This document shows, in pieces, positions 12,555-12,720 of a stretch of DNA of 64,000 nucleotides (the first letter of the stretch is position 1; the number at the start of each line of letters is the position of its first letter). The stretch spans positions 25,393 to 89,392 of the forward strand of contig DJSW01000015.1 in assembly GCA_002439085.1 (NCBI GenBank). Direction: 5' to 3'. Below the pieces are notes generated by a model that saw only the letters and a list, made by a program, of their open reading frames with translations, was not told the DNA's origin and did not search any database. This DNA is from Alphaproteobacteria bacterium UBA6324. Lineage in GTDB: Bacteria > Pseudomonadota > Alphaproteobacteria > CAAGCB01 > CAG-977. The position numbers were made by a program, and so were the translations under genes.

Positions 12555-12645
12555 AAGCTCTCTCCTTACGGCAACATTACCGCGTTGGGAAAAGAGCCGT
12601 CGGAAATCCGTTGACAAAAACAAACGGATTTCCTATCCTAGAAAC

Positions 12646-12720
12646 ATGGGTGAGCTTCTAGACAGCTCTTTTCCAGTTTTTTGGACAAAGTCCGGTGTTC
12701 CTGCACCGGACTTTTCTTTT
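12646..12720 (+). ncRNA. candidate ~75-nt cis-antisense sRNA, copy 2 (divergent body)
   Basis: TTGACA (12611..12616)-N17-TATCCT (12634..12639). Terminator hairpin 12690..12711 plus a T-run to 12720. Confidence 0.5.

Follow-up and report, generated by a model that had tools for sequence, protein, structure and literature searches.

Compensatory change in the leader helices of a tandem small-peptide cassette of gut and rumen Alphaproteobacteria, and a possible antisense-operated Shine-Dalgarno switch

We analyzed a tandem array of small-peptide cassettes in a stretch of 64,000 nucleotides (nt) of contig DJSW01000015.1 from Alphaproteobacteria bacterium UBA6324 (the window), following up a preliminary description of this DNA that had proposed two base-paired helices in the leader of the peptide mRNA. 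The pattern of sequence change in the leader makes it very probable that both helices, A and B, are real and that selection maintains them in the minus-strand RNA, in the peptide-mRNA leader. The cassette itself is, on sequence grounds, likely a type I toxin-antitoxin module, and modeling leads us to favor, by a modest degree, the explanation as a whole, namely, a type I toxin-antitoxin-like cassette with a structured leader and an antisense-operated switch. The analysis was computational, and all transcript starts and ends, together with the antisense RNA, were deduced from promoter and terminator motifs.

The array holds four modules (copies 1 to 4), each with, in minus-strand order, a promoter, a leader of ∼160 nt, a Shine-Dalgarno (SD) sequence, an open reading frame (ORF) for a hydrophobic peptide of 21 amino acids (aa), and an intrinsic terminator. 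The mean column identity of the four aligned modules (alignment A1) was 88%. The helices of the leader are located as follows.

12661..12674, minus strand: 5′ arm of helix A in the mRNA, copy 2, GGAAAAGAGCUGUC; lies inside the target of the antisense RNA
12317-12329, 13012-13024, and 13362-13374, minus strand: 5′ arm of helix A, copies 1, 3, and 4, GGAAGGAGCUAAC
12588..12601, minus strand: 3′ arm of helix A in the mRNA, copy 2, GACGGCUCUUUUCC; also the candidate anti-SD element
12243-12255, 12936-12948, and 13286-13298, minus strand: 3′ arm of helix A, copies 1, 3, and 4, GUUGGCUCCUUCC (GUUUGCUCCUUCC in copy 4)
12623..12633, minus strand: 5′ arm of helix B in the mRNA, copy 2, GGAAAUCCGUU
12276-12288, 12969-12981, and 13319-13331, minus strand: 5′ arm of helix B, copies 1, 3, and 4
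12602..12612, minus strand: 3′ arm of helix B in the mRNA, copy 2, AACGGAUUUCC
12256-12268, 12949-12961, and 13299-13311, minus strand: 3′ arm of helix B, copies 1, 3, and 4
12637..12662, minus strand: helix C, the third arm of a three-way junction in minimum-free-energy folds

On the plus strand, the arms of helix A in copy 2 lie exactly where they had been placed (GGAAAAGAGCCGTC at 12588-12601 and GACAGCTCTTTTCC at 12661-12674), and helix B of this copy is, as described, a perfect helix of 11 bp (GGAAATCCGTT at 12602-12612 and AACGGATTTCC at 12623-12633). The irregularities that had been read as mismatches on the plus strand ('GACa' in helix A, a/c in helix B, and a 'tta' bulge) have to be reinterpreted; they are G·U wobbles on the minus strand, and helix A is therefore contiguous, with 13 to 14 bp in the mRNA. 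Copy 2 has diverged yet still pairs, since comparison with copy 3 revealed 0 uncompensated differences in helix A or B. From copy 3 to copy 2, helix A (GGAAGGAGCUAAC/GUUGGCUCCUUCC to GGAAAAGAGCUGUC/GACGGCUCUUUUCC) shows three substitutions on both sides, which in the mRNA sense are G-C to A-U, A-U to G-C, and A-U to U-A, plus one inserted A-U pair. Helix B (CGAAAACGGGCUG/CAACCUGUUUUCG to GGAAAUCCGUU/AACGGAUUUCC) shows 4 to 5 such substitutions (C-G to G-C, A-U to U-A, G·U to C-G, G-C to U-A, and C·A to U-A, again in the mRNA sense). The arms of helix C read CUAGAA/UUCUAG in copy 2 and CCUAA/UUAGG in copies 1, 3, and 4. The promoter boxes, the SD, and a short hairpin D between helix A and the SD show no difference between copies 2 and 3. 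RNAfold, which had been suggested as a check on the leaders, returned helices A and B together with C in the minimum-free-energy structure of copies 1 to 3; in these models the three helices form a three-way junction, in which the long-range helix A would close around hairpins C and B.

To extend the comparison beyond the window, we assembled 40 distinct homologous leaders from metagenome-assembled genomes (MAGs) of gut and rumen Alphaproteobacteria. A leader-motif scan of one-genome-per-species contigs, together with a metagenome scan with a degenerate peptide pattern, gave 31 distinct leaders; the motif of this first scan sits in hairpin D, and the invariance of hairpin D is thus partly built in by the search. 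A second scan, keyed to the antisense promoter alone and filtered with a covariance model (CM), gave nine further diverged modules, among them two other peptide families of 17 aa (MKQALRFVFLCLMFMFR) and 26 aa (MRFNKIKVRLYWWTLRIIGILSVLIR). The leader type of copy 2 also occurs in other species (L002, L012, L028, L032, L048, and L051), in L028 and L032 combined with different helix B variants. Thus the divergence of copy 2 is real in sequence but not recent, and the array appears, from these sequences, to hold at least two old leader types that recombine, not a single copy of recent divergence.

Two further hairpins of the leader entered the statistics.

12568..12584, minus strand: hairpin D (GCGG-loop-CCG), between the anti-SD arm and the SD
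12690..12711, minus strand: H1, a hairpin at the mRNA 5′ end, complementary to the antisense RNA terminator

We evaluated pairing in two alignments, a CM alignment of the 40 distinct sequences (A7) and a sequence-only MAFFT alignment (A2). In A7, 89.8% of the cells were paired compared to 80.2% in shuffles, both sides had changed at 27 of 45 pairs compared to 20.5 ± 1.8 in shuffles (0/500), and there were 70 extra pair types compared to 59.8 (0/500). The covariation score was 0.338 compared to 0.164 in shuffles (0/500) and fell to ≤0.093 when partners were slid by 1 to 3 columns. By element, the results in A7 were as follows.

Helix A: both-sided change at 10/13 pairs, 93.6% of cells paired
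Helix B: both-sided change at 7/10 pairs, 82.6% of cells paired
H1: both-sided change at 4/8 pairs, 97.5% of cells paired
Hairpin D: both-sided change at 2/4 pairs, 100% of cells paired; the compensatory variants include GCCA/UGGC in L120 and GCGA/UCGC in L051
Helix C: both-sided change at 1/5 pairs, 80% of cells paired, weaker support than for helices A and B

Because a fitted alignment favors its own model, we also used an alignment-free arm-swap test, in which the duplex energy of a module's own arms is compared with that of arms exchanged between modules, with unique arm combinations only. Native arms paired better than swapped arms in helix A (−18.9 versus −14.0 kcal/mol), helix B (−14.4 versus −10.3 kcal/mol), and helix C (−5.7 versus −3.8 kcal/mol), each with 0/10000. 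In A2, 82.4% of the cells were paired, and covariation was 0.185 compared to 0.126 ± 0.006 in shuffles (0/500). RNAalifold on the plain MAFFT alignment missed helices A, B, and C and returned only H1, hairpin D, and a stem between the anti-SD arm and the SD; this is because the arms differ by paired indels and become misaligned, for which reason the CM alignment and the arm-swap test were used instead. Compensatory change thus backs both helices within the window and much more strongly across the 40 leaders, and covariation, on whose survival with added homologues the preliminary description had staked its proposal, stayed above the shuffles in A7 (0/500). With ∼30 distinct arm combinations for helix A and 36 for helix B, the leaders form an unusually rich data set of natural mutagenesis.

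We next considered which strand, and which kind of molecule, carries the selected structure. The plus-strand signals relevant to this question are the following.

12611..12639, plus strand: antisense promoter TTGACA-17 nt-TATCCT, from the promoter scan
12266-12294, 12959-12987, and 13309-13337, plus strand: antisense promoter of the other copies
12646..12722, plus strand: predicted antisense RNA of ∼75 nt, the candidate antitoxin, from the terminator scan, with inferred ends
12687-12714, plus strand: antisense terminator hairpin, followed by a U-tract

These signals are intertwined with the helices, as the loop and 3′ arm of helix B contain the complement of the antisense −35 box and the 3′ arm of helix C overlaps the complement of the antisense −10 box. 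One could therefore suppose that the inverted repeats act as a DNA operator or palindrome at the antisense promoter, or belong to the plus-strand transcript; helix B does bracket the TTGACA box, helix C does overlap the −10 box, and inverted repeats in DNA are symmetric between strands. The data make this very improbable. Both arms of each helix occur together only in the minus-strand leader, as the preliminary description had argued, and the plus-strand promoter puts the antisense start downstream of helix B, so that the predicted RNA begins only after helix B and the upstream arm of helix A and includes just the other arm of helix A. The arms diverge strongly in sequence yet stay complementary, which is unexpected for a protein-binding site, and those of helix A are separated by ∼60 nt that contain two other helices. 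Moreover, the tolerated pairs are not symmetric between strands: in the mRNA sense, helix A has 46 G·U and 14 A·C cells and helix B has 26 and 13, and duplexes formed in this sense are more stable than those of the opposite strand in 24 versus 4 combinations for helix A and 29 versus 6 for helix B. We rejected the operator or palindrome reading on this strand asymmetry. H1 served as an internal control and showed the reverse bias (G·U:A·C of 2:7 in the mRNA sense), which indicates, at the sequence level, a fit to selection as the terminator of the plus-strand RNA. Promoter geometry and the G·U/A·C bias are two independent lines that assign the structure to the peptide mRNA, as had been claimed.

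We note that the mRNA −10 box (TATAAAAG) and the U-tract of the antisense terminator (CUUUUCUUUUAUA) are reverse complements of each other in each module (12717-12725, 12369-12377, 13066-13074, and 13417-13425). With the antisense −35 box in helix B and the antisense −10 box over helix C, promoters, terminator, and RNA helices share bases, and their overlap within ∼350 nt could be a template for synthetic riboregulators. We also observed a small hairpin, H2 (UUCCN...N′GGAA), between H1 and helix A at ∼12674-12690, with equivalents in the other copies and all homologues. The loop-proximal pair of H2 appears, by eye, to covary (G-C, U-A, and A-U); the outer 4 bp of helix A and the pairing of a 5′ UUCC stretch to the SD both compete with this hairpin, and its region is common to the mRNA and the antisense RNA.

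The antisense RNA is backed by conservation of its own signals. Both hexamers of its promoter and the 17-nt spacer were invariant in 26/26 distinct homologues examined, and a strong terminator hairpin with a T-run lies ∼50 nt downstream of TTGACA-17-TATCCT in all four modules. The RNAalifold consensus of the antisense RNA contained compensatory pairs in the terminator and in a 5′ stem-loop, SL1; in per-sequence folds, the 3′ strand of SL1 (AGCUCUUUUCC) repeats the sequence of the 3′ arm of helix A. Over the first ∼65 nt of the leader, including the 5′ arm of helix A, complementarity to the predicted antisense RNA is complete; this RNA stays clear of the ribosome-binding site (RBS), ending ∼80 nt upstream of the SD at 12567.

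The peptide is conserved and resembles a type I toxin in size and hydrophobicity. It is encoded as follows.

12489..12554, minus strand: peptide ORF of copy 2, encoding MMRVLIYIIKLIINVLMSVFR
12209, 12554, 12902, and 13251, minus strand: AUG positions of copies 1 to 4

The window peptide, MMRVLIYIIKLII(V/N)VLMSVFR, has 21 aa and is hydrophobic. The ratio of nonsynonymous to synonymous differences (pN/pS) was 0.26 in the 21-aa class and 0.51 in the 20-aa class; a small (<60 aa) hydrophobic membrane-type peptide under purifying selection, as found here, is what the definition of type I toxin-antitoxin systems asks for.

The first ∼35 to 41 nt of every peptide ORF form a hairpin that pairs the AUG with codons ∼10 to 13 (13211-13251 in copy 4), for example as AUGAUGA/UGAUCAU, AUGAUUA/UAAUCAU, or GUUAAAAUUUUUGGC/GCUGAAAAUUUUAAU. 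The two sides of this hairpin change together even at the cost of amino acid changes. RNAalifold returned no consensus for it, given a one-codon register shift and AU-rich stems, and was replaced by z-scores and the swap test; the mean z-score was −2.66, and the arm-swap test gave −10.1 versus −6.4 kcal/mol (0/5000). From the sequences, the conserved 'K-L-I-I' motif of the peptide may in part reflect a requirement to pair with the region of the start codon. This leader and antisense layout is also joined to unrelated peptides of a 26-aa family (MRFNKIKVRLYWWTLRIIGILSVLIR) and a 17-aa family (MKQALRFVFLCLMFMFR and MKQTVWFVYLCLLMLFN), at L099:1868-2031, L134:4448-4611, L145:7628-7786, L102:5935-6092, L138:835-990, and L019:3221-3381. 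This suggests, as far as sequence goes, that a regulatory RNA chassis has been exchanged between different peptide cargoes.

An alternative without a toxin is that a membrane-peptide gene carries a thermosensor or a ligand- or protein-responsive leader and that the plus-strand small RNA (sRNA) is not made or is incidental. The peptide matches no known toxin family, and bistable leaders resemble translational riboswitches, a likeness also drawn for timP (PMC13000454). We consider this improbable. The promoter of the antisense RNA is invariant, as is the terminator, in which compensatory changes occur on the plus strand. The cassette exists in multiple tandem, mosaic copies, decayed ones being frequent, and initiation of translation is predicted to be obstructed at several levels, through the anti-SD, through the 5′ UUCC stretch, and through the hairpin over the AUG; invariant antisense signals, multicopy decay, and a layered block are all typical of chromosomal type I toxin-antitoxin loci.

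How might an antisense RNA act that never reaches the ribosome-binding site? The preliminary description had noted that the CUCCUUCC arm of helix A is also an anti-SD sequence. This holds insofar as the pairing is possible in all members, at about −12.7 kcal/mol; covariation between the arm and the SD was not detectable (1362/10000).

12557..12567, minus strand: SD region AAGGAGAGAGC, 7 nt away from the AUG; the anti-SD arm is predicted to pair with it

We propose a switch of three parts, in which the 5′ arm of helix A (GGAAGGAGC) would be an anti-anti-SD, the 3′ arm (GCUCCUUCC) the anti-SD, and GGAGAGAGC the SD region. When helix A is formed, the anti-SD would be locked away and the SD held weakly by the short 5′ UUCC stretch. 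The anti-SD arm could be freed by pairing of the antisense RNA to the 5′ arm, by an RNase III cut of the duplex, or by the nascent 5′ domain folding on itself first, and would then clamp the SD around hairpin D, so that no peptide is made; the additional ORF hairpin would conceal the AUG. Since SL1 has the same sequence as the anti-SD arm, the antisense RNA would displace that arm from the 5′ arm.

Several folding results are consistent with such a switch. The 3′ arm (GCUCCUUCC or GCUCUUUUCC) pairs with GGAGAGAGC or variant SD regions in every member, with a mean of −12.7 kcal/mol, and in the window copies the pairing with GGAGAGAGC uses 8 to 10 of the 10 core nucleotides of the arm. The RNAfold minimum-free-energy structure is the anti-SD:SD fold for roughly one member in two, window copy 4 among them, and the helix A fold for the others. 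With the 3′ arm restricted to its upstream or downstream partner, the energy difference was +0.9 ± 3.4 kcal/mol with a 16:16 split (+1.7, +4.8, +4.1, and −1.4 in window copies 1 to 4). Masking of the nucleotides covered by the antisense RNA, which equally models their removal by RNase III, gave the anti-SD:SD stem around hairpin D in nearly all members, with an unpaired probability of the SD of 0.01 to 0.05 in most; the exceptions were two truncated copies, the SD-mutated L036, and the degenerate L022. In these thermodynamic models, the SD of every member is predicted to pair, either with the anti-SD arm or with the 5′ UUCC stretch, and the AUG is predicted to lie in the conserved ORF hairpin. 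Two leaders, L018 and L027, carry a 5′ arm (GGAAGAGGUUACC) and an SD region (GGAGGGUUGCC) that have each changed to fit the 3′ arm GGUAACCUUUUUCC, and L120 has, along with an arm altered from GCUCC to GUUCC, a matching GGAAC downstream of the SD.

Several points weigh against our interpretation. The swap test for anti-SD:SD covariation gave 32/5000 with 32 sequences but was not significant on the larger set (1362/10000), the matched arm and SD changes are found in single lineages only (L018/L027 and L120), and any pyrimidine-rich arm pairs with any purine-rich SD. The helix A fold still leaves the SD mostly paired, through the 5′ UUCC stretch, with an unpaired probability of 0.002 to 0.34, and the ON state is thus not clearly open in the models. 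Equilibrium folds ignore kinetics and proteins, both transcription start sites were placed from motifs, and the CM alignment leans towards its modeled structure. Finally, most homologues came through the hairpin D pattern, and the pattern-independent scan added only nine. A column-based count of anti-SD:SD pairing was dropped, as the SD regions of different classes do not align. We also set aside transcription attenuation through an antisense-induced terminator, as no U-tract follows the anti-SD:SD stem.

The main competitor to the switch accepts the helices as real but only as an element of architecture and stability, which would present the target loop and protect the 5′ end, with the antisense RNA acting purely through RNase III cleavage of the duplex and decay. 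Complementarity over ∼65 nt would offer RNase III an ideal substrate, repression that depends on this enzyme is documented for zorO-OrzO, tisB-IstR-1, and hok-Sok (PMC4147584), and significant covariation is lacking in the anti-SD:SD pairing. We nevertheless consider this reading unlikely, although a serious contender, in view of the ability of every member to pair the 3′ arm of helix A with its SD region, the nearly isoenergetic folds across the family, and the three-way match among the two helix A arms and the SD region in L018 and L027. The 5′-truncated mRNA is, in addition, predicted to be SD-clamped, so that cleavage and switch would cooperate rather than exclude each other. On balance, the models leave the three-element antisense-operated SD switch plausible, at a little short of an even chance. 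That the antitoxin acts by mimicry and strand displacement, with SL1 outcompeting the anti-SD arm for the 5′ arm, and does so across several unrelated peptide families, is more tentative still. If true, it might answer how 5′-untranslated region (UTR) antitoxins such as Rdl act.

We compared the cassette with known systems. A search of the window against Rfam gave 0 matches at gathering thresholds and, at E ≤ 10, only chance-level unrelated sRNAs over the terminator hairpin; Pfam and NCBIfam, searched with four peptide variants, gave no family at E ≤ 10. By sequence, the cassette thus falls outside homology-based membership of every named family, and it likely represents an uncatalogued family of uncultured gut and rumen Alphaproteobacteria, closest in layout to Ldr/Rdl and in logic to timPR. 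The T1TAdb paper lists 24 families, and Alphaproteobacteria go unmentioned in its main text (PMC8594479); the cassette would add a type I family from this group.

Like Ldr/Rdl of Escherichia coli, the cassette has tandem repeats of ∼0.35 to 0.5 kb, each with a small hydrophobic peptide gene and a long 5′ UTR, and a cis-antisense RNA, predicted in our case, of ∼60 to 75 nt that lies inside the 5′ UTR without reaching the RBS or the start codon (PMC4147584, PMC8594479); the window array shares this layout of a predicted antisense RNA in the 5′ UTR clear of the RBS and long direct repeats in tandem. The two have no sequence relationship, with no Rfam rdlD match and no Pfam or NCBIfam peptide match, and they differ in peptide length (20 to 21 aa here versus 35 aa for Ldr) and in host, which here is alphaproteobacterial. 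A conserved leader ORF of the proposed ldrX or mok type was not found across the leaders, where leader AUGs vary in frame and length, from 'MFLG*' to read-through, and no upstream ORF with an SD is conserved; coupling of the mok or ldrX type is therefore unlikely, and we rejected an upstream coupled ORF as not conserved. How Rdl blocks translation is still unresolved (PMC4147584), and the leader described here offers a testable model of how an antisense RNA that never touches the ribosome site still shuts translation, the same question that is open for Ldr/Rdl (PMC4147584).

The logic of timP/TimR is closer. There, mutually exclusive leader conformations gate the SD and TimR favors the closed form (PMC13000454). 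The switch proposed here would share with timP/TimR two exclusive leader folds that decide SD sequestration, an upstream element that must pair with the SD-blocker to open the leader, an sRNA that binds the 5′ UTR off the RBS and favors the closed form, and a model that needs no processing (PMC13000454). The two are not homologous, and here the opening interaction would be a long-range helix of 13 to 14 bp that closes a three-way junction, and the regulator a perfectly complementary cis-antisense RNA with SL1 copying the anti-SD arm, on computational evidence alone. Initiation in a timPR-like switch calls for a 5′ UTR pseudoknot, a kind of structure that the folding tools used here do not predict. 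In Bacillus subtilis, binding of SR4 extends SD sequestration in bsrG (PMC3834814), and the likeness would lie in an antisense RNA that is bound far from the RBS, refolds the mRNA, and strengthens SD sequestration (PMC3834814). SR4 differs in that it overlaps the 3′ end of the mRNA rather than the 5′ UTR, in a Gram-positive host and with an unrelated toxin.

The hok/Sok and aapA/IsoA systems, with their metastable anti-SD hairpins, resemble the model of the cassette in that successive anti-SD elements silence the toxin mRNA during and after transcription (PMC6733600, PMC4147584), with an antisense RNA within the mRNA and with the SD or AUG also sequestered by ORF sequence. They differ in that the cassette has no mok-like coupled ORF and no predicted 5′-3′ long-distance interaction or need for 3′ processing, and in that 5′ truncation is predicted here to silence rather than activate.

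Ibs peptides are very short (18 to 21 aa), hydrophobic, and multicopy and begin with MM(K/R), and the peptides of the cassette share this likeness of short hydrophobic multicopy peptides beginning with MM(K/R). The Sib RNAs, in contrast, cover the whole ORF (PMC8594479), whereas the predicted antisense RNA of the cassette lies wholly 5′ of the ORF, and no Rfam match was found here. Overall, we see here a well-supported RNA structure with a testable mechanism, not a new principle.

The remaining features of the array and its surroundings are the following.

12085..13470, minus strand: array of four tandem modules of ∼348 nt each, as direct repeats spaced 345 to 350 nt
9906-11807, minus strand: neighboring flagellin gene
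13449-16280, plus strand: neighboring polA gene
12746..12741 and 12723..12718, minus strand: mRNA promoter of copy 2, −35 box TTGTTC and −10 box TATAAA, with a 17-nt spacer
12375, 12723, 13072, and 13423, minus strand: first base of the mRNA −10 box, copies 1 to 4
12555..12711, minus strand: leader of copy 2, ∼157 nt, from the motif-inferred start to the base preceding the AUG
12210-12363, 12903-13060, and 13252-13411, minus strand: leaders of copies 1, 3, and 4
12449..12480, minus strand: mRNA terminator hairpin and U-tract

The CM found four full-length matches in the 64-kb window and no more, with scores of 140 to 168 bits. C-rich spacers separate the modules (e.g., CCGCCACCCCACCCCGC) and reach towards the flagellin upstream region (11960-12100, 12750-12790, and 13100-13140).

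Outside the window, the first degenerate peptide-pattern scan of genome contigs identified one related genome only, and a protein-database search with a longer in-frame ORF returned just three clusters, because the peptide ORF is too short to be called, and thereby gave two related ones. On the contigs of these two, from human-gut metagenomes, a leader of a third type lies next to a tRNA-Val gene. Several of the MAGs hold at least two loci, and cassettes are thus multilocus per genome as well as tandem. The site between polA and flagellin is occupied in the window, L002, L012, and L049, and the tRNA-Val site is another, so that modules occupy several unrelated intergenic sites; in the human-gut contigs, a single module lies directly downstream of the tRNA-Val(GAC) gene (L003:2600-2674).

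We also encountered copies that appear decayed or partial, a turnover typical of multicopy chromosomal toxin loci. In L041:4665-4815, the 5′ arm is of type 2 and the 3′ arm of type 1, which breaks the helix; the promoter and the stop codon are lost as well. The ORF is frameshifted and helix A weak in L022:3273-3430, a stop stands at codon 5 in L038:3421-3583, and the SD is mutated (GCAG) in L036:6937-7095. L002:952-1112 and L012:2299-2458 are leader-only copies truncated at the SD.

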